A stretch of 64,000 bases of DNA from Klebsiella phage phiKp_32, in sequence record LC768500.1, one strand, 5' to 3'. Positions 10,305-52,285 of this stretch are shown here, one piece after another. The position numbers were made by a program, and so were the translations under genes. Positions within the stretch are counted from its first letter, which is position 1; each line of letters opens with the position of its first letter. The notes beneath the pieces were generated by a model. That model was not told the DNA's origin, made no database searches, and saw only the letters and a list, made by a program, of their open reading frames with translations.

Positions 10305-12779
10305 ATGATCGTTAAGCTGATATTAAAAGGTTACATTCCTTTGAACACCAAAGGAGTAGAATATTTTGAGACGGATCAATTGGGCTTAATGAATATCCTG
10401 ATTGGACGCAATGGGCATGGGAAGAGTTCCATACTCAACGAGGCGTCGCCGATGCCTCCTGAAAACGCCGACTATGTAGAAGACGGCTATAAATACGTCG
10501 AAATAATTAATAAGGGAAAACGGTATTATTTGGAATCTTTCACGGGATCAAAAAGCAAACACTCGTTTAAAGATTCAGAAGGTAACGAACTCAACTCAGG
10601 CGGTACCCAAGCGGTACAAAAAGAACTGGTCAAACAGTATTTTGACCTCACTCCGTTGTACTTTAAAGTTCTTACCGCAATCAATGAAAACTATCGTTTC
10701 ACAGCACTAGGCGTGGCGGAAAGAAAGTTCCTCTTAATGGACCTCTACCCTAACGATACCAAATACGCGCTGATTGTCTATAACAAAATCAAATCAGCGT
10801 ATAGCGATACCGTAGGGGCGTTAAAGAACCAAAGTCAGAGATTGATTGAGGAACAGCAACGCGTAAGTGCTTTAGGAGGAAAAACCAAAGAAGAACTCCT
10901 CCACGATATCTCTCAGCTCGATAAACGTATTAACGAAATCGTTTACCTGCAAGGCGAACTCAACGGAACAGCTAACGTTAGTGGCGATCTTCGTTTAGAA
11001 ATTGAGGATTTCAATAGTAAAGTAAAATCCTTGCTCGTGATGGGGATGACCACAGGGACGCTGTCACGTCAACAGTTAATAGCGAGCATTGAGAGTTTAA
11101 AAGCTTCGTTGGTTTATCACGAAACCCAGCAGAAGATGTATCAGACGCAACTGAATGATATTTCCTCTGCGATGAGCGGACTGGAGTTGAAAGACCACGA
11201 CCCTAAACAATTTGAAACACAACTGTTGGATCTCGAGTATCGTCATGCCGTACTCGAAACAGTATTGAACGACTCGGAAGAACTCATCAAACGAGAACCG
11301 TTTATATCTGAACACCGGGAACGGCTAATTAACCTCGCTCCTGGTTTTAGAACCTTGATAGATCGGATAAACTTAATCCCCCTTTGTTCTAATCCAGAGT
11401 TAACCACGAGCCAGTACCAAAACTGGTTAGACAAGTCCGAACAGATTTTTAACGAAGGTAAACAATCCAGGGTTGAGTTGGAACACGTCCAACATCAACT
11501 CAAACATTATCGTGATGCTTCAGAAGTCCAGTGTCCTGAATGCTCTTCTCAGTTTAAACCTGGGTTCGATAAGACCTACGAATCTAAATTGATTAAACAG
11601 GAAGATGGATTAAAATCGACCATCGCTCACCTAACGAGTAAGTATAAGCAATACAAACAAACCCTCGCTTTGGATCAAGAATGGTTCAGTCAAATGAGGG
11701 CTTTGGAACAGTACGTAGAAAGCAGTCATGAAGCGAAATTCTTGCTTCATCTGTTAAGCGAGTATAAGGTAGGTTATGAACCAGCCGATAGGCTCATAAA
11801 CATCATTAAAACGCTCGCTACGACGCTGGATTATAAGAAACAACAGGATGCCTTGACCGAAGAAATAAACGTCTTAAAAACCCGTATAAACGTGTTTAAA
11901 ACGAATAATATGGAAGAGGCTCTGGCCGCGTACTCACTCAGCGAAGAAAGGCTGGGTGATAGTAATCGTGCAATTCGTCGTTGTATGGCATTGTTGAGGG
12001 AACACCAGAAGACCTTAAAGGATTATGACGCTTACGAAATAACGATTGACGCGATCAGAGAAGGGCAAGCAAGAATCCTCGACTTATTACGGGATGAGGG
12101 TAAGGTAAGTTTGCATAGGAGACTCAACGAAGTAATGTCAAGTCTTCTCCCTCAGAAAGATGAAGTCATGTCTCTGATGATCAGACAGGAGTCGTTAAAG
12201 ACTCTGGTCGAGTCTATCGAAGATAACATCGCGAACCTTAAGAAAAGACAATCTGATCTTAAGATCTTGATGGACGGACTCTGCCCTAAGAAAGGATACA
12301 TCGGGGAATTGATGAAGGACTTTATTACCGCAATTTGTGCGAATATGAATGCGGTAATACGGGACATATGGAGCACGCCTCTCTTTGTTAAACCGTGTGT
12401 TAATAAGAAAGGTGAAATGGATTATAACTTCCCAGTTATTAATGGCGACTCTAGCAGAACAGCTTCTGACGTGGCTAAATGTAGCGGGGGAGAAAAGGAG
12501 ATTATTAACTTCGCATTTCGGTTAGTTGTCTCTCGGTACGTGAAATACGACAGCCCTCTTTTCTTGGACGAGGTTGGCGTTAACATGGACGAATACCACC
12601 GTGGTCGCTTCTTTGATTATGTCAAACGACTGATGGCGACGGGTAAGATCGATCAATGTTTTATGATCAGTCATTACTCTTCACAATACGGACTTATGGA
12701 CAACGCTAACATTATTGCTTTAAATACAGAAGGTTTAACGGTTCCCCCTAACGTCAATCTCAGTACAACGATAAGGTAA
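10305..12779 (+). CDS. sbcC: Rad50/SbcC-family recombination ATPase (T4 gp46-like)
   Basis: N-terminal Walker A GRNGHGKSS; long coiled coils; central CPEC zinc-hook motif; C-terminal ABC signature CSGGEKE; Walker B LFLDE; H-loop ISHYS. Start moved to ATG 10305 (MIVKL). Confidence 0.8.
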   Translation: MIVKLILKGYIPLNTKGVEYFETDQLGLMNILIGRNGHGKSSILNEASPMPPENADYVEDGYKYVEIINKGKRYYLESFTGSKSKHSFKDSEGNELNSGGTQAVQKELVKQYFDLTPLYFKVLTAINENYRFTALGVAERKFLLMDLYPNDTKYALIVYNKIKSAYSDTVGALKNQSQRLIEEQQRVSALGGKTKEELLHDISQLDKRINEIVYLQGELNGTANVSGDLRLEIEDFNSKVKSLLVMGMTTGTLSRQQLIASIESLKASLVYHETQQKMYQTQLNDISSAMSGLELKDHDPKQFETQLLDLEYRHAVLETVLNDSEELIKREPFISEHRERLINLAPGFRTLIDRINLIPLCSNPELTTSQYQNWLDKSEQIFNEGKQSRVELEHVQHQLKHYRDASEVQCPECSSQFKPGFDKTYESKLIKQEDGLKSTIAHLTSKYKQYKQTLALDQEWFSQMRALEQYVESSHEAKFLLHLLSEYKVGYEPADRLINIIKTLATTLDYKKQQDALTEEINVLKTRINVFKTNNMEEALAAYSLSEERLGDSNRAIRRCMALLREHQKTLKDYDAYEITIDAIREGQARILDLLRDEGKVSLHRRLNEVMSSLLPQKDEVMSLMIRQESLKTLVESIEDNIANLKKRQSDLKILMDGLCPKKGYIGELMKDFITAICANMNAVIRDIWSTPLFVKPCVNKKGEMDYNFPVINGDSSRTASDVAKCSGGEKEIINFAFRLVVSRYVKYDSPLFLDEVGVNMDEYHRGRFFDYVKRLMATGKIDQCFMISHYSSQYGLMDNANIIALNTEGLTVPPNVNLSTTIR

Positions 12780-12783
12780 TACC

Positions 12784-13068
12784 ATGTTGACCTTTACTAC
12801 CACGGTGCGTAATAAAGCCGACAAGCTCGCAGCGGAACTCGATAAGGTTATCAGTAACTCATCGATAAACACCCGTAAAGCGACTTGGTTATTGCGTTAC
12901 GCCAATGTCATTAACTACGCAAACGTCAATGGATTAAAATTAGTTGAATTCAATACCAGAGCCGAAACTATTCGCAAATGGATAGCCACAGGACATGTTT
13001 TCTTTGAGGGTAACAAAGCCATCTCTCTTGAAGAAATCGGTATGGATTTCAACTCCGGCCGCCGGTAA
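12784..13068 (+). CDS. Hypothetical protein (94 aa)
   Basis: ORF with RBS aagg, tightly packed after the Rad50-like gene. Confidence 0.5.
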   Translation: MLTFTTTVRNKADKLAAELDKVISNSSINTRKATWLLRYANVINYANVNGLKLVEFNTRAETIRKWIATGHVFFEGNKAISLEEIGMDFNSGRR

Positions 13069-13101
13069 AATAAGACAGATCTATATCATATTTAGAGAAC
13101 C

Positions 13102-13142
13102 GTGAAGGGTGTCTCATTTTCTCTTACACCCTTCACTTTTTT
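13102..13142 (+). terminator. Rho-independent terminator
   Basis: gtgaagggtg / cacccttcac stem followed by tttttt. Confidence 0.6.
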
Positions 13143-13161
13143 ACTACGAGGAAATGAAAAA

Positions 13162-13830
13162 ATGAAGACCGTTTTTGGTTTAATGTTCGTTCTTATCATG
13201 GGGATAAGCAATGCACTCGCATCCGTGAGTTCGTCTCAATCAGACTATCACTACTTTAATAAACAGAAAGGTTATATTTTTGAAGCGTCTAAACTAACAG
13301 GGGTTTCTCCTGAATTAGTCACAGCCATAGGGTCCATCGAAAGTGGATTAGGTCGTAATAAGGTCAACAAATATTCTAAAGTCAAAGGTGTGATGCAAAC
13401 CACCAAGCGGACTTATAACTCTAACCTCAAGAAACACCACGAAAGACTTGGGTTATCTCCTAACGCTTCTATCAAAAACGATAGAGCAAATATCTTAGTT
13501 GCTACCGCAGCATTAGCAGATAACAAACGTTACTTAGAGAAAGTCACGAATAAAAAAATCACAGATGGGGATGTGTTCATTTCCCATCTGGTAGGTTTAG
13601 GTGGTGCAGCTAAAATAATTAAAGGTAAACCTAACGCCCCTATAAGCCGTTATATCACGCTTCATAAAGGGAACATGCGACTCTATACTGACAAAGGACG
13701 GGTATTGACCGTGGCGCAGTTTAGGAGGAGTATGGATCGGTTGGTAAAGAAAGAAAGCGCGAAGTATGCCGTGGTTATCAATCAGAACAAGTTGGATCGT
13801 TTGATAACAGCTGTCGCGTATAATCAATAA
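13162..13830 (+). CDS. Secreted lytic transglycosylase (SLT domain)
   Basis: N-terminal signal peptide MKTVFGLMFVLIMGISNALA. Catalytic E-S...G[LV]MQ motif (SIESGL...KGVMQTT). Start refined to ATG 13162. Confidence 0.7.
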   Translation: MKTVFGLMFVLIMGISNALASVSSSQSDYHYFNKQKGYIFEASKLTGVSPELVTAIGSIESGLGRNKVNKYSKVKGVMQTTKRTYNSNLKKHHERLGLSPNASIKNDRANILVATAALADNKRYLEKVTNKKITDGDVFISHLVGLGGAAKIIKGKPNAPISRYITLHKGNMRLYTDKGRVLTVAQFRRSMDRLVKKESAKYAVVINQNKLDRLITAVAYNQ

Positions 13831-15773: not shown

Positions 15774-15850
15774 ATTTAAACGACACCTACTATCTCTTGG
15801 GAAACCAAGAGATAGTAAAACCACTTTTTTGCATTTAGGAAATTTTTACC

Positions 15851-17755
15851 ATGAGAGAGCAACTAGCTGAACAAATCAAGTATCATAATAAACGTTATTT
15901 TTTAGATAACGATCCGGAAATATCCGACGATCAATACGACGAATTAAAACGGCAATACGACGCGTTGGGTGGTAATAAAAGTTCTTCCCCCGTCTTGTTA
16001 GACATGGAGGGGAGTGCTCTGCACAAGGTAGGGTTAGACATCCCCATGTTATCTTTATCTAAGAAATTGAACTTATCGGAATACGAAGCCTGGGAATCCG
16101 ATTACGAAGATAAGGATAAGTATCATTCTTACAAACTGGACGGTCTGGCGATTGAAGCCTGTTACGAGTTTGGTTTGTTAACTAAGCTCCGTACACGAGG
16201 AGATGGGCTAACTGGCGAAGATATCTTAGATAATGCCGGGGTTTTCTCACCAGATCAGCTCCCTTTAGAAAATCCGGCTTTAAAGGATTTTCACCGGGTT
16301 TGGTTACGAGGGGAAGGGTACGTCAGACTGGACGATCTGGTTGTTATCAATGAGATCAACGCCAAGACTTATCCCAATTGTCGTAGTGCGGCATCGGGCC
16401 TTATTCGTAGAAATCCAAAAGACAACGAAGATCTGGCAGGTAAGATTTCTTATAACGTTTATTGGTGCAGTGAACGTTTCGGTTTAGAGACTTACTCCGC
16501 CGTTATGGATAAACTCCGTGACTTCGGTTTCAGTACTGCCCCGGAATGTCAGTATGAAGACATTGTCAATAATAACCGTCCCCCACTTCTTCCTACTGAC
16601 GGAATCGTTTCCGTTATCGATAGTTTTTCTGATCAAGATGAATTGGGTTCGACTAACGAATATCCTCGCTGGGGAGTGGCATATAAGTTCCCTCCGGAGC
16701 AAGCGGAAACCATCGCTGAAAACGTTTCATGGGAAACGGGTAGAACGGGACGAGTCACCCCAGTTCTCACTTATAAGGCGGTTACGTTAGGCGGTAATAC
16801 AAACACGGAATGTTCTTTGTTCAACTATCGTCATTTTATCAAAACCGGGGTACGTAAAGGGAGTCGGATCATCATCGCCCGTAACGGTGACGTCATTCCT
16901 TATTTCGTTAGGGTTGTAGAAGCCGGATTAGGCGATGAGTTTAAAACCCCTAAAGTCTGTCCGTCGTGTTCGTCCATTCTGATGTATGAAGGGAAAGACG
17001 AGAAGAACATCTTCTTAACCTGTAAAAATACCGCGGATTGTCCAGCGCAGCATATCCAGCGATTCATTAATTTTGTCAGTCGTAAGGGATTGGATATCAA
17101 AGGTTACGGCGATAAGATGATGGAGAAGCACGTCGGGGAAGGGAAAGTCAGTACGCTTTCTGACATTCTTAACTTAGGAGAAATCCTTTCAGGGGAGGGT
17201 TTGGATAGGAATACTGAGAAGGTTATTGAGAAACTCAATAACTTAGGAAGTTACCCGGCATATAAGGTACTGGGTGCTTTGGGTATTCCTGGTGTCGCCG
17301 AAGGAACAGCTAAACTCATTACCGCTCAAGTCGGCAGTGTGGAAGATCTAATCGCTCTGCTTAAAGACGTTAAACGTTTGCTGGAGATTGAAGGTGTTGG
17401 AGTGAGTACCGTAAATGAGATCCAATCGTTTTTAAGTAACCCGGCTCTTTTTACGGATGTCGAAAACGTACTGAATAAACTCACATTAACATTTGAAAAA
17501 GGACAAGAACACGATATCAAAGTTTGTGTTACCGGGGGGTTATCCATTCCGAGAAAAGCAGCAGAAGAGAAGTTCAATCTTTCTGGGATTGAGTTACTGG
17601 ACGGTGTAACTAAAAAGATGGATGTTCTCGTCTTCGCACCTGGAGGGAGTCAGGGTAAGAAGGATAAAGCTATCGCCATGAATAAAGTGGTTATAGAAGC
17701 AACCGACGTTCACACTGTAGAACAAATTATCGATCAAATATTAACAGCCATTTAG
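15851..17755 (+). CDS. ligA: NAD+-dependent DNA ligase
   Basis: Adenylation motif KxDG (SYKLDGLAIE); Zn-finger cysteines CPSCSS...CKNTADCPAQ; C-terminal BRCT-like region. 634 aa. Confidence 0.85.
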   Translation: MREQLAEQIKYHNKRYFLDNDPEISDDQYDELKRQYDALGGNKSSSPVLLDMEGSALHKVGLDIPMLSLSKKLNLSEYEAWESDYEDKDKYHSYKLDGLAIEACYEFGLLTKLRTRGDGLTGEDILDNAGVFSPDQLPLENPALKDFHRVWLRGEGYVRLDDLVVINEINAKTYPNCRSAASGLIRRNPKDNEDLAGKISYNVYWCSERFGLETYSAVMDKLRDFGFSTAPECQYEDIVNNNRPPLLPTDGIVSVIDSFSDQDELGSTNEYPRWGVAYKFPPEQAETIAENVSWETGRTGRVTPVLTYKAVTLGGNTNTECSLFNYRHFIKTGVRKGSRIIIARNGDVIPYFVRVVEAGLGDEFKTPKVCPSCSSILMYEGKDEKNIFLTCKNTADCPAQHIQRFINFVSRKGLDIKGYGDKMMEKHVGEGKVSTLSDILNLGEILSGEGLDRNTEKVIEKLNNLGSYPAYKVLGALGIPGVAEGTAKLITAQVGSVEDLIALLKDVKRLLEIEGVGVSTVNEIQSFLSNPALFTDVENVLNKLTLTFEKGQEHDIKVCVTGGLSIPRKAAEEKFNLSGIELLDGVTKKMDVLVFAPGGSQGKKDKAIAMNKVVIEATDVHTVEQIIDQILTAI

Positions 17756-17765
17756 GAGAAAAGCA

Positions 17766-18092
17766 ATGCGAATTATTAAAATCGTAACTGTTTTTGTAGA
17801 TGCGACTATGGAGGAGATCAAAGCGATCGTGAAACAACACGTCGATCGTAATTTATACGAAGATCATATCCTCGAATACAAAGAAGGTTCGGCCGTTTTC
17901 TTGGTTGCCGAAAACCAAGCTGGATTGGTTGCGACCTCTTTGCAAGGCGCTTTCGATAATTCGGAATACATGCCTCGCTCTACGTTAACGGATACTGACA
18001 AGGGATTGATCGTATTGCGTTACACCAAACTCACTGGGGACCTGCGCGCTTCTAACGGTACTCGTAATCAAGCCAAAGCCATGTTTAACTAA
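17766..18092 (+). CDS. Hypothetical protein (108 aa)
   Basis: ORF with RBS aggag. Confidence 0.5.
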   Translation: MRIIKIVTVFVDATMEEIKAIVKQHVDRNLYEDHILEYKEGSAVFLVAENQAGLVATSLQGAFDNSEYMPRSTLTDTDKGLIVLRYTKLTGDLRASNGTRNQAKAMFN

Positions 18093-18107
18093 TTGGATAT
18101 CGACAAA

Positions 18108-19355
18108 ATGACCAAAGAAACTAAAGTAGAGAAAAAAGAAGCAGGCGTTTTTAAACTTAAAGAGAAACAGATACAGGTTGCTAATCCTAAACGTGATTAT
18201 CATCTGATGATCGACGGAGAAGATAAAACTTCCGAATTAGTTGACGTGGATAAAGCGGGCATGGACGATTTCCAATTTCGGTTCGGATTCTTTATGTACA
18301 TCCGCGATAAAAACAAGAAGCTAAAAAGACTCTTTGAATACGGTTCTGCTGAGGGTTTGAAAGAGTTTACGTTTAAGCAATCTGATAAAGAATATCGGAT
18401 CGTTTTAGGTAAAGGGTCCTCTGTGACGCTTGAGACTAAATCTGGCGGTAGGATGTTCGACGAGGACTTCATGCCCATGGGAGAGGACGTCTCAGTGAAC
18501 GATTACCGATTACGTGATGCGTTCCACCCCTCTTTTAACCTTAAACCTGAGACAGGAAACAAAACTACTCTGGTAGTTCTTAACTCCACTGTTTCACTCA
18601 AATATGTTTACGGGATTAATCTCGTTATCAATCAGGATATCACAGAAGGAACGCTGATATCCTCCTATGTTTACAATTCTCGGTATTCGGATTACCATAA
18701 GCTGGTTAACCCGACCATTGTGCGGTCAGAGATTGATGAAGGGTCGTTATCCGAATCACCTTATATTGTAAAAAGTGTTATTCGTGACTCCGGACTGAGA
18801 GGAAAGAGGGTTTCCGTCGTCAACTCTGTGTTTCTTAAAACCAGAATTAATGCCGAAGGTGGGATCACAGCAAGTAAAGTTAGTTTAGAAAACTCCAACA
18901 TCAGCTCCAGAAGTTCTAACGTAGATTTCGACGGGAGCTCTTTCAACGTTTACTCAGGCGTACAGCTTAATACGGTCGCCGGCGTTCTAATCAAACGTAA
19001 AGTAGATTTTTTAGAGTACTCCATCGGTGATGTCACTCTGATAGCGGTACGTAAAGGCGGGCTTTATCCTCGCACCTATGAATCCGACAAGGGTGTTGAA
19101 ATGATTATCTCGACACCTTATCGTTACGTCGATGTTAGGGACGAAATTGTTGTTAGAGAGAAAGATTCCCGCAGTGAAATCACGGCTAAAGTAGCTAAGC
19201 TCATTTTCAATAGGGATACTGAACAGACTATTTATCAGGGTCCGTTCCAGAGTAACACTGTGGAGTCGACTATCGTTGAATCTTTCTCCGACGCCATTAT
19301 GTCCAGACTTCGTCTGTTGGGGATGATTGATACAGCTTTAAGTGTGGGGATTTAA
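18108..19355 (+). CDS. Hypothetical protein (about 415 aa)
   Basis: Long ORF. ATG at 18108 preferred over the TTG at 18093. Confidence 0.55.
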   Translation: MTKETKVEKKEAGVFKLKEKQIQVANPKRDYHLMIDGEDKTSELVDVDKAGMDDFQFRFGFFMYIRDKNKKLKRLFEYGSAEGLKEFTFKQSDKEYRIVLGKGSSVTLETKSGGRMFDEDFMPMGEDVSVNDYRLRDAFHPSFNLKPETGNKTTLVVLNSTVSLKYVYGINLVINQDITEGTLISSYVYNSRYSDYHKLVNPTIVRSEIDEGSLSESPYIVKSVIRDSGLRGKRVSVVNSVFLKTRINAEGGITASKVSLENSNISSRSSNVDFDGSSFNVYSGVQLNTVAGVLIKRKVDFLEYSIGDVTLIAVRKGGLYPRTYESDKGVEMIISTPYRYVDVRDEIVVREKDSRSEITAKVAKLIFNRDTEQTIYQGPFQSNTVESTIVESFSDAIMSRLRLLGMIDTALSVGI

Positions 19356-19358
19356 ATC

Positions 19359-19964
19359 ATGTTAAAAATTCGTTTCGAAGAATTAAAGACGTTTAACAAA
19401 CTCATTGTTAACGACTTTACCATTAAGGTCGATAAAGGTCACGAGAACCTCCCTGCTGAGCTTTACGAAGGTAAGACGCTCATTGCTACAATACCGACAA
19501 CAAAATCGTCCTCAGGCGTTCCTATTAAGCCTATGGGGTTGTTCCCGTTTGTTACTTTAATGGCCATGGGTGGGGCTATTATCAGTCAACAGAAAGAAGG
19601 GGTCTTTGATAAACTCCAGGGTTTATCCGAAGAGATCTTTTCTCAAGTAATCCATCGACAAACGATGGGAGAGCAGTTCTGCGACGATCCTAAGAATCAC
19701 AAGTACCTTCGTGTGTGCTTGGATAATGGGGCGTGGTCAACTGAGAAGGAAATCCAACCCGGTATTTTTGTGAATAACGAGTTTTACGTGTCGTCCAACG
19801 TTAATTCGAAAAATCAACGTTTTATGAAGGTTATTTCTATAACCGACGTCGCCTCCCCTAATCGTAAAAATATCGTTAGGCAGGAACTCCGTCAGGTTTA
19901 CGTCTTCACTGTACCGTTTGGGGAATTCGGATTTAAACACGAATTGGTCCAGTCGATTAAGTAA
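19359..19964 (+). CDS. Hypothetical protein (201 aa)
   Basis: ORF packed 3 nt after the upstream stop. Confidence 0.55.
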   Translation: MLKIRFEELKTFNKLIVNDFTIKVDKGHENLPAELYEGKTLIATIPTTKSSSGVPIKPMGLFPFVTLMAMGGAIISQQKEGVFDKLQGLSEEIFSQVIHRQTMGEQFCDDPKNHKYLRVCLDNGAWSTEKEIQPGIFVNNEFYVSSNVNSKNQRFMKVISITDVASPNRKNIVRQELRQVYVFTVPFGEFGFKHELVQSIK

Positions 19965-19971
19965 CGTTGAG

Positions 19972-19993
19972 AGGGGAGATTAAGTTCTCCCCT
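19972..19993 (+). terminator. Stem-loop terminator
   Basis: aggggaga-ttaagt-tctcccct. Confidence 0.5.
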
Positions 19994-20016
19994 ATTTAAC
20001 CAACGAGGATAAGATT

Positions 20017-20538
20017 TTGGATCAAATTACTATTTACACCGATGGTAGCTGTCTTGAGAATAGCGCGGCCGGAGGACCGGGAGGATGGGCGTACATTATC
20101 GTAGGCAAGGATGAAAAATATTCGATAGAGCAAAACAAAGGTTATTTTAAAACCACAAATAACCGAATGGAAATGATGGCGTGTTTAGAAGCGTTATTGG
20201 AGTTCGATTACCCGAAAAGAATTATCATTCATACCGATAGCCAATATCTCATCGACGGGATGACTAAATGGATTTACGGTTGGAGAAAAAGGAATTGGGT
20301 GACGGGTTACGGAGAAGCAGTTAAAAACAAAGACCTTTGGCAGGCGTTGATTGACGCCAGTAAGTTTCACAAAGTCACCTACGTGAAAGTTAGAGCGCAT
20401 AATGGTGATAAGTACAATGAGCGATGCGATGTTCTCGCTAAAGAAGCGGCGAGAAACCCAGAGCTTGATGACGTAGGATTTGTTCCCGTACACAACCCAC
20501 CCAAAATTAAATATCCTTATTACTTTAGGAAAAGATAA
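20017..20538 (+). CDS. rnhA: Ribonuclease HI
   Basis: TDGSC..N..GG.G.W, TNNRME, HTDSQY and ERCD motifs are collinear with E. coli RnhA. TTG start with RBS gagga. Confidence 0.85.
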   Translation: MDQITIYTDGSCLENSAAGGPGGWAYIIVGKDEKYSIEQNKGYFKTTNNRMEMMACLEALLEFDYPKRIIIHTDSQYLIDGMTKWIYGWRKRNWVTGYGEAVKNKDLWQALIDASKFHKVTYVKVRAHNGDKYNERCDVLAKEAARNPELDDVGFVPVHNPPKIKYPYYFRKR

Positions 20539-20540
20539 TC

Positions 20541-21881
20541 ATGGTTTCAATTGATGATGTGCAGAAAAAACTCACTACTTATTTTGATGACCGTTTAATC
20601 GGGCAACCGGAATTAGTAGAAGGTATCATTACCAATATTAAGTTGCGAGAGATCTACCACAATAATTTAGCGTTTGCTAAAGAAGCCGGTATTTATATCC
20701 CCCCTTTAAATATGCTGGTTAGGGGGAAATCTGGCAACGGTAAAAGTCATTCGATTAACTTTATTTGTCGATCTTTGGGATTACCTTTCGTCAGCGTCAA
20801 CGCCACGGATTTTACTTCTTCCGGTTACGTTGGCGCTTCGTTGTCAGATATTCCTAAAATGCTGATCGATGAAGCGGAAAGGATTCTTAAAGAGAAAGAT
20901 CAAATTAAGGGTGGGTTCGACGTTCCCCCTCCCACACAGGACGATAAAGATGTTGAGGAAGCCGACAATCGTTTTAAAGCAATAGAAAAAGAATTAATCG
21001 ACTTGGGTGTTCGTATGGATAAAATGGGTCCTAAGCGACCTGCCTTCGCCCACTCTATACGTTTGTATGAAAAGGGGATACCGTACAGAATCAAACTTTG
21101 TTTCAGTAACAAAACACCTAAGAAACTTTATGCCGAATTAACCGAAGGGAAGGAATTTACCGATAAAGAGAGGACTAAGATTAATAGTCTGTTAAACAAG
21201 CTGTCCACCCCATATAAACCCTACTCGTTTAAATTCGATACAAGTTTCATTGACAAGTTCAGGTTAGGTGGAATAAAAGATTCTAATCCTGGAGTCAAAG
21301 AGTATGCCCAAAATAAGGGTATCGTCATGATCGATGAGATTGATAAAATCCTCATGGGTAAGAACGGACAATACAACGTTGGGACTCACGGAATCATCAG
21401 GGAGATTCTAGCCTATCTGTCCGGATCAAACATCATGAGCGGAGGTGATATGTTTGATACGTCAAACATCATCTTTATCTGTGCTGGCGCTTTTGACATG
21501 GTCGACTTTAAAGATATCCCCACCGAACTCTTAGGTCGCCTCCCTACACGTTTAACTGTTAAGGACCCTACTGAAGATAGTCTTTACCGGATGCTGACTT
21601 CCCAGGTAGTGGACCCGTGGGGTATGGTCAAACTCATTCTTCGTAACAAAGGATGTGAAAATTTCATCATTAGTGATGAAATTTCTAGACATATCGCCAA
21701 ACGTGTTATCGAGGACGAAAAGATCAAACCCATTGGGGTCAGACGTTTAATGGCTGTGATTAGCGAAATAGCTAAAATCTATTATCTCATGGACGAGATA
21801 GATAAAGAGATAACTTTATCAGAGTTCGTAGCGGATAAAGCACTTAAAACGATTAGAGACGGTTTATTAGAATCGGTTTAA
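20541..21881 (+). CDS. hslU: HslU-type AAA+ ATPase/unfoldase homologue with an I-domain insertion
   Basis: IGQ, Walker A GKSGNGKS, PFVSVNATDFTSSGYVG (matches the HslU ATKFTEVGYVG), Walker B GIVMIDEIDKI, NIIFICAGAF, LLGRLP and a sensor-2 GVRRL. An insertion of about 150 aa sits at the I-domain position. Confidence 0.8.
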   Translation: MVSIDDVQKKLTTYFDDRLIGQPELVEGIITNIKLREIYHNNLAFAKEAGIYIPPLNMLVRGKSGNGKSHSINFICRSLGLPFVSVNATDFTSSGYVGASLSDIPKMLIDEAERILKEKDQIKGGFDVPPPTQDDKDVEEADNRFKAIEKELIDLGVRMDKMGPKRPAFAHSIRLYEKGIPYRIKLCFSNKTPKKLYAELTEGKEFTDKERTKINSLLNKLSTPYKPYSFKFDTSFIDKFRLGGIKDSNPGVKEYAQNKGIVMIDEIDKILMGKNGQYNVGTHGIIREILAYLSGSNIMSGGDMFDTSNIIFICAGAFDMVDFKDIPTELLGRLPTRLTVKDPTEDSLYRMLTSQVVDPWGMVKLILRNKGCENFIISDEISRHIAKRVIEDEKIKPIGVRRLMAVISEIAKIYYLMDEIDKEITLSEFVADKALKTIRDGLLESV

Positions 21882-21884
21882 ACT

Positions 21885-21914
21885 TATATCCTGGGCGGAT
21901 CCGCCCAGGATATA
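21885..21914 (+). terminator. Stem-loop terminator
   Basis: tatatcctgggcgg-at-ccgcccaggatata. Confidence 0.6.
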
Positions 21915-21944
21915 ATCTGTTAATTTAACTTTTGGAAACTCATC

Positions 21945-23639: not shown

Positions 23640-23839
23640 GCTCTAGCGCAATATATTAGGCCTTCGGCCTAAAGGGCTAGGGTAAGTCTATTCGTTCGTT
23701 TCAGCATCAATCAAGGTATTCGCTACGCTCATACTTTCTTATGCTGATCGATGGGTAGAAAATCTTTCTATTTTAGTTAAATACCAGTTAAAACGGGTTT
23801 GGGCGACGTCTTTTTGAAAATTTAACTAGTGGCTATCAT

Positions 23840-25123
23840 CTTGGTACTTAACTTATTTAATTTAAACTCTATATCATAAAGTCGGAGGAACTTATTATGT
23901 TTATTTCTAAACGAGGTAAACTCCGGCTCTATAAAGAGGACGTGGAGTTAGTTAATCGCACCTTTGGTTGTCGGAGATTTGTATGGAATCAATTATTGGG
24001 TTTACACAAAGAGCGATATGAAAAATGGAAGGAAAATAATAACTTAGAAAAACCCACAGTTTCTATTTCTGCATTGAGAGAAGATTTTAAACGTATTAGA
24101 TCGGAGCATTCTTGGTTAAATGAAGTAAGTTCTGTTGCTTTATATGAGACCATTACTGATCTTTATAATGCCTTTCAACGCTTCTTCAATAATCAATCCG
24201 GTTACCCTAAGTTTAAATCTAAGAGAGGCGCGCAGACTTTTCGTATCACCTCTAGGGTCAACCTGCGGGTCGAGGGTAATATGGTTAGGTTACCCAAATC
24301 CAATTGTTATTCGATATTCTCTAAAAATACTGTCTTAAATGATCCTTCTTCTTATACCGTTACTAGGGATAGCGTAGGCGATTATTTCATCTCTTTCGTA
24401 GACCAAATTGATGAGATAGAGCCAGAACCCGAAAGTAAGGGCAAACATGTAGGGATCGATTTAGGAATTAAATCCTTAGCGATTGTTAAACCTAGTAAGG
24501 GAGAACCTTGGGAATTAATCAACCCTAGAACGTATACGAAATATCAAAAACGCAGAACGACGCTACAACGCCGTTTAATGAAAAAGAAGAAAGGGAGTAA
24601 AAACAGAAACAAAGCTAGAATTAAATTAGCGAAGTTAGAACGTAAAGTTGCTAATATTCGTAAAGATCTTTTACACAAATTTACGACTACACTGATTAAA
24701 GAAAACCAAATGATCAGTATCGAAGATTTAAATGTAAAAGGGATGTTAAAAAACCATAGCTTGGCTAAACATATTCAGGATTGTTCTTTTGGTACAATTA
24801 GAACGATGCTGGAATATAAAGCTAAACGTTATACTCGAAATAAAACGATCACCATCGTTAATCGGTTCTTTGCAAGCACTCAACTTTGTTCTCAGTGCGG
24901 TGTTCTCCCTAAAGAGCGTATCGGACTTAAAATCAGGAACTGGGTATGTTGGAACTGCGGCACTAAACACGATAGAGATATTAACGCTGCTACGAATATC
25001 CTTAACCAAGGATTACGTTTAACAACCTCCTAGGTTAAGGGTATTTATTACCCTTGGTCTGAGGGGAAGTTAAGCCTGTGGAGACAAGTTGCAGTAAGGA
25101 CTTTCTATGAAGCAGGAAGTTGA
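23840..25123 (+). mobile_element. IS605-family TnpB-only (IS1341-like) element, copy 1
   Basis: Ends are approximate. Inferred from where sequence similarity to copy 2 begins (about 55 nt upstream of tnpB) and ends (conserved gaagcaggaagttga 90 nt past the tnpB stop). Confidence 0.5.
23897..25033 (+). CDS. tnpB: TnpB (OrfB) RNA-guided endonuclease-family protein
   Basis: RuvC-I GIDLGIKS, RuvC-II ISIEDLNVKGM, zinc finger CSQCG...CWNCG, RuvC-III HDRDINAATNI. 378 aa. Confidence 0.85.
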   Translation: MFISKRGKLRLYKEDVELVNRTFGCRRFVWNQLLGLHKERYEKWKENNNLEKPTVSISALREDFKRIRSEHSWLNEVSSVALYETITDLYNAFQRFFNNQSGYPKFKSKRGAQTFRITSRVNLRVEGNMVRLPKSNCYSIFSKNTVLNDPSSYTVTRDSVGDYFISFVDQIDEIEPEPESKGKHVGIDLGIKSLAIVKPSKGEPWELINPRTYTKYQKRRTTLQRRLMKKKKGSKNRNKARIKLAKLERKVANIRKDLLHKFTTTLIKENQMISIEDLNVKGMLKNHSLAKHIQDCSFGTIRTMLEYKAKRYTRNKTITIVNRFFASTQLCSQCGVLPKERIGLKIRNWVCWNCGTKHDRDINAATNILNQGLRLTTS

Positions 25124-25145
25124 AATATACAAGACATCTTACACT
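25010..25145 (+). ncRNA. Putative omegaRNA (TnpB guide RNA) derived from the element's right end
   Basis: A segment overlapping the 3' end of tnpB and extending 90 nt past it is conserved with copy 2 (ggttaagggtattta..ttggtctgagggga.gttaagcctg.ggag...gaagcaggaagttga). It is followed by a copy-specific sequence, aatatacaagacatcttac..., that would serve as the guide. Confidence 0.45.
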
Positions 25146-25308: not shown

Positions 25309-25425
25309 ATGAATATCGTAATGCCACTAAAGCTACTCGGAGGGTTACTTATCCTGGGAGTGGGTTTTGGATTACTGGTTTATCTCATCGTTAAACTCTC
25401 TGTTAAAATGGCGTATAAGAAATGA
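25309..25425 (+). CDS. Putative small single-TM peptide (38 aa)
   Basis: RBS aggag then ATG. MNIVMPLKLLGGLLILGVGFGLLVYLIVKLSVKMAYKK. Its stop overlaps the next start (ATGA). Confidence 0.4.
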   Translation: MNIVMPLKLLGGLLILGVGFGLLVYLIVKLSVKMAYKK

Positions 25426-25889
25426 GTGAAGAAGAGTTATCATTAGGTTATATTTCAGTTAAAGTCATTCCCACTCAGGAAGACATTCTTAAAGATAAGG
25501 TGTTGGATGCGGGATGTCTTCCGTTAGATGAAGGGGCATATCACGCTACTCTTATTTTTGATATTCATCAAGATGGCGTGATCCCTAACGTACCTATGAT
25601 CCCTGAAAAGATCTTCGAGGGAAAGGTTATTGGAATCAAGGAACTCGGAGAGCGTAAAGGAGATATTATCTCAGCCGTTGTACTCGAACTGGATTCTCCT
25701 GAATTGACAGAAGAGCATGATCGGTTAATACAATGTGGGTATGGTCATTCCTATCCGGATTACATCCCCCATATTTCGCTCGCTTACAAGGTCACAGAAG
25801 AGCAAATGGAAGATCTCAAACGACAGTGTGAGTCGCTTATTGGTAAAACGTTCTACTTATCCGGAGAGAGCATCGACTGGATAGATTAA
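25422..25889 (+). CDS. 2H phosphoesterase-superfamily protein (LigT/Acb1-like); candidate cyclic-oligonucleotide phosphodiesterase
   Basis: Two H-x-[TS]-x motifs, HATL at H41 and HISL at H117, in a 155-aa protein. This spacing is the 2H-fold hallmark. Confidence 0.55.
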   Translation: MSEEELSLGYISVKVIPTQEDILKDKVLDAGCLPLDEGAYHATLIFDIHQDGVIPNVPMIPEKIFEGKVIGIKELGERKGDIISAVVLELDSPELTEEHDRLIQCGYGHSYPDYIPHISLAYKVTEEQMEDLKRQCESLIGKTFYLSGESIDWID

Positions 25890-26372: not shown

Positions 26373-26696
26373 ATGACGTACGATGAAGTCGAGAAATATC
26401 TGGAAATGGGAGAGGCTATCTCTAAGGGTAGTTGGAAAGCTAACGAAGCGGTTTATTTAGAGCCGACGACGTTACTTAATCCAGCGCACTATCCTGAGTG
26501 TTTAAAGGCCGCGGGTATTAACTCCCTTTTGAGAGTCGATCGACATTTAGTGCGTGTTACCGCGAGTAACACTGTTGAGCGTTTTATTCCCAACATTGTA
26601 GAAAGAAAAGAAAACGATTGGTACGTTAAGAGTTATACCTTCGAACAAAATAAAGCATTGCCAGAACATAATCAAACCCAAGAAGAAGCTGCATAA
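26373..26696 (+). CDS. Hypothetical protein (107 aa)
   Basis: ORF. Confidence 0.5.
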   Translation: MTYDEVEKYLEMGEAISKGSWKANEAVYLEPTTLLNPAHYPECLKAAGINSLLRVDRHLVRVTASNTVERFIPNIVERKENDWYVKSYTFEQNKALPEHNQTQEEAA

Positions 26697-45120: not shown

Positions 45121-45894
45121 ATGCATAATCGTAGTGTTAAGCGTGCTAACCGCGACGCTCGTCGCGAAGCAAGACGTCAAGATAAGTCCCAAAGTAGCCA
45201 ACTGAAACTGGTGGACAACAATTTCAGTGAAATAAATCTACCTCTTGCAAAAGCTGATCGGAGTAAGATTGAGCCGAAAACCCCAATGCAACAAAAATAT
45301 TGGAATGGGTTACACGCCCACGATGTCGTCATCGGTATTGGTGAAGCGGGTAGCGGTAAAACGTTCCTCCCGACTTGTTACGCTGCAGAACGTCTGCTGG
45401 CTAAAGACGTGGAAAAGATTATCGTTACACGACCAGTCCTACAGGCCGATGAAGATCTGGGTTTTCTCCCCGGGGATGTTAATGAGAAATTCGCACCTTA
45501 CTTCCGACCGGTCTACGATATCTTACTGAAACGCCTGGGTGGTGGAATGCTCAACTATTGCATGAAGCCTGGCGTGGAGAAAGTTGAAGTCGCCCCCTTT
45601 GCTTTTATGAGAGGTCGTACTTTTTCTGACTCAGTGGTGATTCTTGACGAAGCGCAAAACGTTACAGTTATGCAGATGAAAATGTTCATCACTCGTATGG
45701 GTGAGAACACTACGGTAATCATCAACGGCGACCTTACCCAGTGCGATCTTCCTAAAGGAGTTAAATCCGGTCTGGAAGATCTACTGGAGCGCATTGAACG
45801 AGATCCTGAAAATGGATTCCCGATTTATCGTTTCAATGCGGCTGATAGTGTGCGGTCAGATATTTGCTCCAAAGCCCTGAAACTTTATAAGTAA
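45121..45894 (+). CDS. phoH: PhoH-like ATPase
   Basis: Walker A GIGEAGSGKTFL, Walker B VILDEAQN, and PhoH-type spacing. 257 aa. Confidence 0.8.
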   Translation: MHNRSVKRANRDARREARRQDKSQSSQLKLVDNNFSEINLPLAKADRSKIEPKTPMQQKYWNGLHAHDVVIGIGEAGSGKTFLPTCYAAERLLAKDVEKIIVTRPVLQADEDLGFLPGDVNEKFAPYFRPVYDILLKRLGGGMLNYCMKPGVEKVEVAPFAFMRGRTFSDSVVILDEAQNVTVMQMKMFITRMGENTTVIINGDLTQCDLPKGVKSGLEDLLERIERDPENGFPIYRFNAADSVRSDICSKALKLYK

Positions 45895-50984: not shown

Positions 50985-52262
50985 GGATAGTTCATCTATT
51001 TTTAGTTCTACATTATCTGGTCGGAGGAACTAAAAATGTTTATTAGTAAACGGGGTAAACTCCGGCCACATAAATCCAATATTGAAATTATCGAACGGAC
51101 TTTCGGTTGTCGGAGATTTGTCTGGAATCAGTTATTAGGATTACATAAAGAGCAATATGAAAAATGGAAGGGGGATAATACTTTAGAAAAACCCAAATTA
51201 AGTTTAACACTGCTTAATAAAGAGCTCAATGAGCTCAAAATAACTCATTCTTGGTTAAATGAAGTAAGTGCCGTAGTTTTACAACAAAGCGTCAATGATC
51301 TTTATAGTGCTTTTCAAGGTTTCTTTAAGAGAGGCAAAGGTTACCCTAAATTTAAATCCAAAAGAGGAATTCAATCTTTTCGGTTTTCAGGTAGTCGGGA
51401 TATTCATGTCGACCACTCTAAAATCAGATTACCCAAATGCAATCATAAATCGGTAATTTCTAAAAACGTTATACTCAACGATCCTTCTTCCTATACCGTT
51501 ATTCGTGATCGGGTTGGCGATTATTTTATTTCCTTTGTTGACCAAATCGAAGAGATTGAACAAGAACCTGAAAGTAAGGGTAAGTTCGTCGGGGTTGATT
51601 TAGGGATCAAATCCTTGGCGGTTATTAAACACGTAAACGGTAAAGTAGAGGAAATAGAAAATCCTCAATTTTATCGTAAAGCTGAAAAACGTTTAAAGAC
51701 GTTATCCCGTCGTTTAAGTAAGAAACAGAAAGGGAGTAAGAATCGGAACAAAGCCAGAATTAAATTAGCTAAACACTGTCGAAAGATTGCTAATCAACGC
51801 AATGACTTTTTACATAAATTATCCACTCGATTAATTACCGAAAACCAAGGGATTAATATCGAAGATTTAAATGTAAAGGGGATGGTTAAGAATCATAACT
51901 TAGCGAAGTCGATTCAAGATGCGTCTTTCAGTATCTTAAAACAACAATTGATTTACAAAGCTAGCCGGTATATTAAACCTAAAGTGATTTGTCTTGTCGA
52001 TCGTTTTTATCCCAGTACTCAAATCTGCTCTCATTGTGGCGTTAAAAGTGAAGTGAAAATCAAACTTCACGTAAGAGAATGGACCTGTGGTCACTGCGGA
52101 ACGCATCACGATCGTGACATTAATGCGGCTACGAATATCCTTAACGAAGGATGTCGTTTAACTACTTCCTAGGTTAAGGGTATTTAGTTACCCCTACCCT
52201 TGGTCTGAGGGGACGTTAAGCCTGCGGAGTGCTGCAGTTGGTACGAGGAAGCAGGAAGTTGA
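50985..52262 (+). mobile_element. IS605-family TnpB-only element, copy 2
   Basis: Ends approximate. Upstream homology to copy 1 (tcta.at.at...gtcggaggaac); downstream conserved scaffold ends at gaagcaggaagttga (52248-52262). Confidence 0.5.
51036..52172 (+). CDS. tnpB: TnpB RNA-guided endonuclease-family protein, copy 2
   Basis: GVDLGIKS, INIEDLNVKGM, CSHCG...CGHCG, HDRDINAATNI. Roughly 65% identical to copy 1 by eye. Confidence 0.85.
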   Translation: MFISKRGKLRPHKSNIEIIERTFGCRRFVWNQLLGLHKEQYEKWKGDNTLEKPKLSLTLLNKELNELKITHSWLNEVSAVVLQQSVNDLYSAFQGFFKRGKGYPKFKSKRGIQSFRFSGSRDIHVDHSKIRLPKCNHKSVISKNVILNDPSSYTVIRDRVGDYFISFVDQIEEIEQEPESKGKFVGVDLGIKSLAVIKHVNGKVEEIENPQFYRKAEKRLKTLSRRLSKKQKGSKNRNKARIKLAKHCRKIANQRNDFLHKLSTRLITENQGINIEDLNVKGMVKNHNLAKSIQDASFSILKQQLIYKASRYIKPKVICLVDRFYPSTQICSHCGVKSEVKIKLHVREWTCGHCGTHHDRDINAATNILNEGCRLTTS

Positions 52263-52285
52263 TTTATCAGCAAGACACATTATCT
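52150..52285 (+). ncRNA. Putative omegaRNA of TnpB copy 2
   Basis: Same conserved scaffold as copy 1, followed by a different 3' sequence tttatcagcaagacacattatc. Confidence 0.45.

Follow-up and report, generated by a model that had tools for sequence, protein, structure and literature searches.

The window analysed here, a 64,000-nucleotide stretch of Klebsiella phage phiKp_32 (LC768500.1), contains at positions 20541..21881 a coding sequence with an ATG start for an AAA+ ATPase of 446 amino acids, which its sequence assigns to the HslU branch of these proteins. The preliminary description, made from the sequence alone, had drawn attention to this open reading frame (ORF), and the analysis confirmed that it is a real gene. 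It lies on the plus strand, as do the other features of the window given below with one exception. Its ortholog in Klebsiella phage Miami, gp072 (QPB09167.1; UniProt A0A873WCQ0, labelled 'ATP-dependent protease'), is 98.4% identical over all 446 amino acids, differs by strain-level substitutions only and has the same surroundings, from ligase to RNase H upstream and a terminator downstream; it is effectively the same gene, and the window carries in addition extra TnpB insertions nearby. A Shine-Dalgarno sequence, AGGA (20527..20530), is located 10 nt before the ATG, at the place where a ribosome-binding site is annotated in Miami. The genes are tightly packed, since the stop codon (20536-20538) of the RNase HI gene directly upstream (20017..20538; Pfam RNase_H, 136.6 bits) ends 2 nt before the AAA+ start. 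Both genes belong to a six-gene block (15851-21881) that opens with a NAD-dependent DNA ligase gene (15851..17755), includes three unknown genes and is bounded at its ends by perfect hairpins of 15 and 14 bp. The first hairpin (15786..15819, called on the minus strand by the hairpin scan) stands just 5' of the ligase gene, and the second, G+C-rich (21884..21915), lies 3 nt past the AAA+ stop codon at a position equivalent to that of the terminator annotated in Miami and forms the 3' boundary of the block. The AAA+ gene appears to be co-transcribed with those of the DNA ligase and RNase HI. The tails of both hairpins are not T-rich, and the hairpins may be RNA-stability signals or termination signals for a phage RNA polymerase instead of classical intrinsic terminators.

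The alignments and the motif table showed that all the HslU motifs listed in the preliminary description are present, and that none of them varies, either within the phage clade or in bona fide HslU. From the N-terminus they comprise the LIGQ box (G21, Q22); the Walker A motif G62-KSGNG-K68-S69 (20724..20747), with G62, G65, G67 and K68 invariant; and the pore-1 loop G95-Y-V-G98 (20823..20834), with G95, Y96 and G98 invariant, which is the substrate-gripping aromatic loop of HslU/ClpX-type unfoldases and sits within NATDFTSSGYVGAS. They continue with the Walker B motif IVMID265E266 (21321..21338; the full stretch reads IVMID265E266IDKI), with D265 and E266 invariant, and with the segment IIFICAGAF. 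The arginine-finger segment LLGR333LP (21528..21545) follows 9 residues from the GAF strand with no ClpX-type IGF loop, and sensor-2 is formed by R401-R402 (21741..21746) within GVR401R402L, an RR doublet of HslU type where ClpX has a single arginine. The complete HslU AAA+ module, that is Walker A and B, GYVG pore-1 loop, arginine finger and RR sensor-2, is therefore found in the phage protein, and its motifs are intact in 10 of the 10 members of the Miami-type clade.

Profile, structure and tree comparisons agree on the branch to which the protein belongs. A Pfam scan recognised a split AAA module (AAA + AAA_2), and the best NCBIfam family was TIGR00390 (hslU; E 6.6e-33, 114.3 bits), well under its equivalog cut-off of 362.45 bits, which two positive controls exceeded with 725 (P0020) and 612 bits (P0013); other phage homologs scored 102-250 bits. 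ClpX came second, with 54.3 and 39.8 bits against equivalog cut-offs of 359 and 371. The best matches among solved structures were HslU chains (E 8e-26), in two collinear stretches covering residues 10-123 and 256-421. An AlphaFold2 model (predicted local distance difference test score 78, predicted template-modelling score 0.65) retrieved HslU in 50 of the 50 top Foldseek matches in the PDB, with E values down to 6e-17 and template-modelling (TM) scores of 0.6-0.7, and its top viral structural match was UniProt A0A873WCQ0. The strong and collinear similarity to HslU that had been noticed at first reading was thus borne out. Matches to MoxR, clamp-loader, Orc/Cdc6 and IteA proteins were rejected, as they covered the Walker A region only with 12-17 bits.

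A search of 5.8 billion proteins returned a tight clade of phage and metagenome proteins (P0001-P0012; 36-95% identity, 265-950 bits), beyond which scores fell abruptly to about 85-105 bits for bacterial HslU and then about 60 bits for ClpX. When a profile of the Miami-type clade was run against 1.84 billion representatives, only about six Miami-type clusters appeared before scores of 120-250 bits. One further protein of 1238 amino acids (P0123) matched this profile in 9 separate stretches (224.6 bits) and may represent a relative with several AAA+ modules, in tandem or by fusion. In a neighbour-joining (NJ) tree built from 279 conserved columns with 100 bootstraps and limited sampling, the phage proteins and HslU grouped together against ClpX (100/100), in agreement with the earlier assignment of this phage-encoded protein to the HslU branch and not to ClpX or MoxR. 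Within this group the Miami clade was monophyletic (100) and so was bacterial HslU (100/100), with the phage clade outside it, and the sister link between Miami-type and RAY-type proteins received 33/100. Judged by these comparisons, the phage protein belongs to the HslU branch, yet it is no HslU ortholog. With bacterial HslU (ClpY; e.g. PDB 1G3I, 1DO0, 5JI3) it shares the AAA+ architecture and fold, the GYVG loop, the RR sensor-2 and a comparably sized insertion at the corresponding site, while being only 20-26% identical and branching outside the bacterial crown group. With ClpX it shares the organization of a single-ring HCLR-clade unfoldase with a GYVG loop, and the N-terminal halves align with an E value of about 1e-11.

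The region after the pore-1 loop helix, where HslU carries its I-domain, differs in kind from that of the cellular enzymes. At this site the phage protein has a clade-specific insertion of 143 amino acids (residues 113-255; 20877..21305), against 138-185 in HslU and 6 in ClpX. The preliminary description had taken this I-domain-sized insertion for an I-domain; position and size hold, whereas the sequence is unrelated and the charge opposite. Comparison of the insertion with the HslU I-domain by hhalign revealed no homology (probability 0.4%, E 0.16), nor did comparison with the insertions of RAY-type homologs, described below, reveal any relationship (probability <1%). Residues 113-160 form an acidic, low-confidence linker with a net charge of -5, and residues 161-255 are basic and mostly helical, with a net charge of +11 and an isoelectric point (pI) of 9.85. 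The insertion as a whole has a pI of 9.3 and is basic in 10 of 10 Miami-clade proteins (pI 8.0-9.6), whereas the I-domain is acidic in all 10 HslUs compared (pI 4.9-5.9). In the AlphaFold2 model the insertion forms a cap, helical for the most part, that has two linkers of low confidence.

The HslU C-terminal tail reportedly inserts into HslV and activates it. In the phage protein this tail reads RDGLLESV (residues 439-446; 21855..21878): L442 is conserved and the HslV-docking end, of the form SRFIL, is absent. The motif DL(S/T)R(F/Y)IL occurs in 10 of 10 bacterial HslUs and in none of the 15 phage homologs, and distant members of the clade end in RNSLSDF, RMSLEDF and similar sequences. The remark made at first reading that the activating tail was not obviously conserved was hence correct. 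Docking on ClpP relies on other elements: ClpX sequences contain, between the GAF strand and the arginine finger, an insertion of about 34 amino acids with the ClpP-docking tripeptide (I/L)GF. No IGF/LGF loop was found in the phage protein, whose gap between these two elements is 9 residues, as in HslU, against about 43 in ClpX, and the zinc-binding N-domain of ClpX (PF06689, zf-C4_ClpX) had neither a Pfam match nor a counterpart in the alignment. As far as can be read from these motifs, the protein is intact in its engine, yet both known peptidase-docking routes are lost.

These findings bear directly on two suggestions of the preliminary description, namely that a solitary phage HslU could hijack the HslV or the ClpP of the host. 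In the first case the phage ATPase would cap the host HslV dodecamer and redirect proteolysis to substrates chosen by the phage. Klebsiella does encode HslV, HslU is the closest relative in sequence and fold, the tail is of similar length with Leu442 kept, and the GenBank label of the ortholog speaks of a protease. However, the docking motif is missing from every phage homolog, the phage tails finish in acidic or polar residues (LLESV, LSDF, LRDDQ), and host HslV would be cytoplasmic whereas a phage homolog considered below is nuclear. In phages of this kind the nucleus generally excludes most host proteins. Redirection of host HslV is for these reasons unlikely. In the second case a ClpX-like docking on host ClpP would be required, for which the second rank of ClpX among the families (54 bits) is what can be adduced; with the docking loop and the zinc-binding domain missing and ClpX excluded by the tree (100/100), this explanation appears effectively refuted. 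Both forms of hijack are disfavoured because the corresponding docking elements are missing.

No partner gene was found either. Authentic single bacterial HslV and ClpP sequences, taken from loci found via HslU and ClpX matches, were compared by phmmer --max with six-frame ORFs of at least 40 amino acids from the window, from the complete genome (252,190 bp) of its closest relative, phage BUCTxx100 (OR529409.1), and from a locus of a distant clade member (L002), and returned noise only (<=8 bits). The absence of a neighbouring HslV gene that had been noticed before was accordingly upheld and extended to ClpP and to a whole genome. A cognate hslV was absent likewise from the neighbourhoods of four other phage homologs, whereas in a control bacterial locus hslV lies directly upstream of hslU. 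Pfam and PHROG scans of the immediate neighbours, that is window ORFs of 108, 420, 201, 164 and 128 amino acids, gp115, gp117 and gp118 of Erwinia phage RAY and the flanks in L002, yielded no match and no protease signature. The two HslV-sized RAY proteins, gp117 and gp118 (179 amino acids each), were considered as cryptic HslVs and dropped, as neither had a Pfam or PHROG match. Of the genes in its neighbourhood, this lineage has only three in common with the distant loci L002 and L018, namely those of RNase H, the AAA+ protein and PhoH, arranged in one order throughout. With no HslV or ClpP detected, no protease signature in any neighbour and only RNase H and PhoH shared, the AAA+ protein is therefore an orphan without a HslV or ClpP partner gene. 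A peptidase of novel fold or of the phiKZ prohead type could still escape recognition and make the pair a phage-specific ATP-dependent protease: most genes of these phages have no assigned function (47 of 300 are annotated), and the tail conserved within the clade (R-x-S/G-L-x-D/E-F) might serve to dock on a partner. The lack of conserved neighbours other than RNase H and PhoH, of protease signatures in the neighbours and of a match for the HslV-sized RAY proteins speaks against such a peptidase, which we regard as quite improbable.

Solitary peptidases do exist as the mirror case. A tblastn search of phage records with HslV found HslV-like genes in Klebsiella phages, and the matches listed were phages of about 140-150 kb that are phAPEC8-like and not Miami-like; with ClpP, 1851 records were returned, mostly prohead proteases. 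In the phAPEC8-like Escherichia and Klebsiella phages an HslV-family peptidase with about 28% identity to HslV occurs on its own (for example phAPEC8, NC_020079.1, 34412-34876), and these phages gave no HslU-like tblastn match. For Salmonella phage pSal-SNUABM-04 the published description lists HslV at ORFs 1 and 116 and no HslU; tblastn found in it an HslU-like match (MT710307.1, about 107320-107799) under the record label 'putative DnaA protein', which is inconsistent with that description, and the conflict is probably a labelling mix-up.

The lineage of the phage offers a different setting for the enzyme. Six jumbo phages of about 252-257 kb match the window region with 90-94.5% identity; they include Klebsiella phages Miami (about 94%), YC1 and KPN8, Raoultella phage VB_ZK_P1 and 'Stenotrophomonas' phage BUCTxx100, the closest with 94.5%. 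The last one (loci L007-L012) was deposited as a Stenotrophomonas maltophilia phage, an unexpected host label given its Klebsiella and Raoultella relatives. BUCTxx100 has clear homologs of the PhuZ, the non-virion RNA polymerase beta' and the DNA polymerase of RAY, and its ORF 202037-204049 (670 amino acids, syntenic) matches PHROG 4795, 'nuclear shell protein' (E 1.6e-100), the family of RAY chimallin; phmmer and BLASTP (E 0.79 in the latter) gave no link between this ORF and RAY gp222 (chimallin), so that the connection is made by the PHROG profile only. The evidence for chimallin comes from the BUCTxx100 genome, as the position of the gene falls beyond the 64-kb window, and Miami is itself listed among the chimallin-encoding, nucleus-forming phages (Prichard et al. 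2023, PMC10299810). The window hence belongs to a lineage of nucleus-forming phages, or chimalliviruses, with chimallin, PhuZ and their own non-virion RNA polymerase.

In the same work Miami_gp072, RAY gp116 and AH06 gp122 were aligned as 'HslUV-like protease homologs' (Fig. S4H), the gene was classed as accessory and not core in nucleus-forming phages, and RAY gp116 fused to green fluorescent protein (GFP) co-localised with phage DNA inside the phage nucleus (Prichard et al. 2023, PMC10299810). The Klebsiella phage protein matches the corresponding profile, PHROG 4339 (E 1.4e-40, 140.9 bits; the archetype RAY gp116 scores 603 bits), and both its AAA+ halves align with RAY gp116 at 31-33% identity (E 5e-19 and 1e-10). 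RAY gp116 and its relatives share with it the phage-specific NVG motif after Walker B and the lack of an HslV tail, and RAY gp116 also has a basic insertion (pI 9.25) and comes from a chimallin-encoding jumbo phage. It differs in its length of 569 amino acids, a 226-aa insertion of unrelated sequence (hhalign E 0.73), a GYYG pore loop, a C-terminal extension of about 25 amino acids and a TIGR00390 score of 250 bits versus 114. A literature search on phage HslU-like proteins found no functional study beyond the localisation of RAY gp116, and one on AAA+ unfoldases of chimalliviruses found nothing relevant.

The reading favoured here, held tentatively with a probability of roughly 45%, is that the protein would be a ring-forming, ATP-driven unfoldase or remodeller of HslU descent that works independently of a peptidase and probably has DNA-associated complexes inside the phage nucleus as its targets. 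Since the engine is intact, a hexameric unfoldase or remodeller that does not degrade its substrates would be the most economical reading; the phage nucleus and DNA-associated substrates are proposed because RAY gp116-GFP is nuclear, the cap is basic and the gene lies in the block of ligase and RNase HI. The GYVG loops of a hexamer would hold a segment of polypeptide and draw it through the pore, and target proteins would in this way be unfolded or dismantled without degradation. The basic insertion, on the entry face, might select substrates or tether the ring to DNA or nucleoprotein. Action on replication, repair or transcription factors inside the phage nucleus is suggested by the localisation of RAY gp116. 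Several points weigh against this reading. The localisation is borrowed from RAY gp116, whose identity to the Klebsiella phage protein is only 31-33%, whose insertion is larger and of another kind, and which was tagged C-terminally; other RAY-type homologs have acidic insertions, so that the idea of a basic cap is not general; and the conservation of L442 and of the approximate tail length is compatible with a non-canonical contact with HslV. Moreover, HslV and ClpP were searched with single sequences in the window and the closest relative, a procedure that a highly divergent or novel peptidase would escape, and the reading rests on homologs and on the sequence of the phage protein and Miami gp072.

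The preliminary description had also offered a stand-alone unfoldase or chaperone during assembly. Its first half, a stand-alone unfoldase, is the best supported option, and its second half, the timing during assembly, found no specific support. A chaperone of morphogenesis would unfold or remodel head, scaffold or tail proteins, and structural genes are indeed found 10-20 kb upstream; the gene is nonetheless part of a replication and repair block with no structural module, and the RAY homolog is found with DNA in the nucleus and not with capsids, which makes a role in virion assembly highly unlikely. An early function in host takeover, by unfolding or stripping particular proteins of the host (for instance immune effectors or nucleoid proteins), would suit an accessory gene with an insertion domain that varies between lineages, as expected for arms-race genes; the genes for Acb1 (25422-25889) and a Tad2-like protein (26373-26696) lie 3.5-5 kb downstream, and overcoming host defence was mentioned as a possibility by Prichard et al. 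2023 (PMC10299810). However, a strong hairpin separates the AAA+ gene, which is in the ligase/RNase HI block, from the anti-defence genes, there was no match to PADLOC or anti-defence families (best PADLOC score 15.7 bits), and the nuclear location of the RAY homolog argues against host targets in the cytoplasm. Hence, an anti-defence unfoldase is improbable as well. It is very unlikely, though conceivable from the same data, that the enzyme would serve a subset of chimalliviruses as an intranuclear pulling motor or proteostasis machine, importing polypeptides through the chimallin-shell machinery or stripping and recycling DNA-bound proteins; if so, no ATP-driven unfoldase would have been assigned to the phage nucleus before it.

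The gene and its resemblance to HslU are already known from GenBank, UniProt and Prichard et al. 2023 (PMC10299810). The present analysis adds that the 'protease' label on Miami gp072 is a probable misannotation, because both known peptidase-docking routes are lost and the acidic I-domain has been exchanged for an unrelated basic cap, that the 'I-domain' is no I-domain, and that both hijack models are without the docking elements they require. The vague label 'HslUV-like protease' is thereby turned into a testable hypothesis, that of a protease-independent remodeller in the phage nucleus, which, if true, would be a finding of genuine interest to the biology of the phage nucleus. To our knowledge, no ATP-dependent unfoldase has a known role in that field.

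The wider neighbourhood contains further features. PhoH is encoded at 45121-45894, 23 kb downstream of the AAA+ gene across a gap that holds tail-fibre-like and small ORFs, whereas in distant members of the clade (L002 11547-12308; L018 9101-9865), which keep the order from RNase H to the AAA+ gene, it directly follows the latter. The three genes behave like fixed points of synteny, with variable cargo between them. The Acb1 protein, an anti-CBASS 2H-phosphoesterase, was identified by Pfam PF23474 (50.3 bits, cut-off 27), and the label 'RNA ligase' on its Miami ortholog is probably a misannotation; the Tad2-like (anti-Thoeris) domain protein matched PF11195 with 23.4 bits, just below the cut-off of 25. 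Taken together, the two genes hint at a small cluster of anti-defence functions on the downstream side of the AAA+ gene.

Two TnpB-only elements are present in the window, at about 23746-25137 and 51030-52276, each with an ORF of 378 amino acids (23897-25033 and 51036-52172) that contains OrfB_IS605 and a Cas12f1-like TNB domain and is not accompanied by TnpA. The elements are 70% identical to each other at the DNA level. Both are missing from the same sites of BUCTxx100, and the first one is missing in Miami too, where the flanks are contiguous. They are insertion polymorphisms among near-identical phages, and BUCTxx100 carries a third TnpB copy elsewhere (12365-13501).

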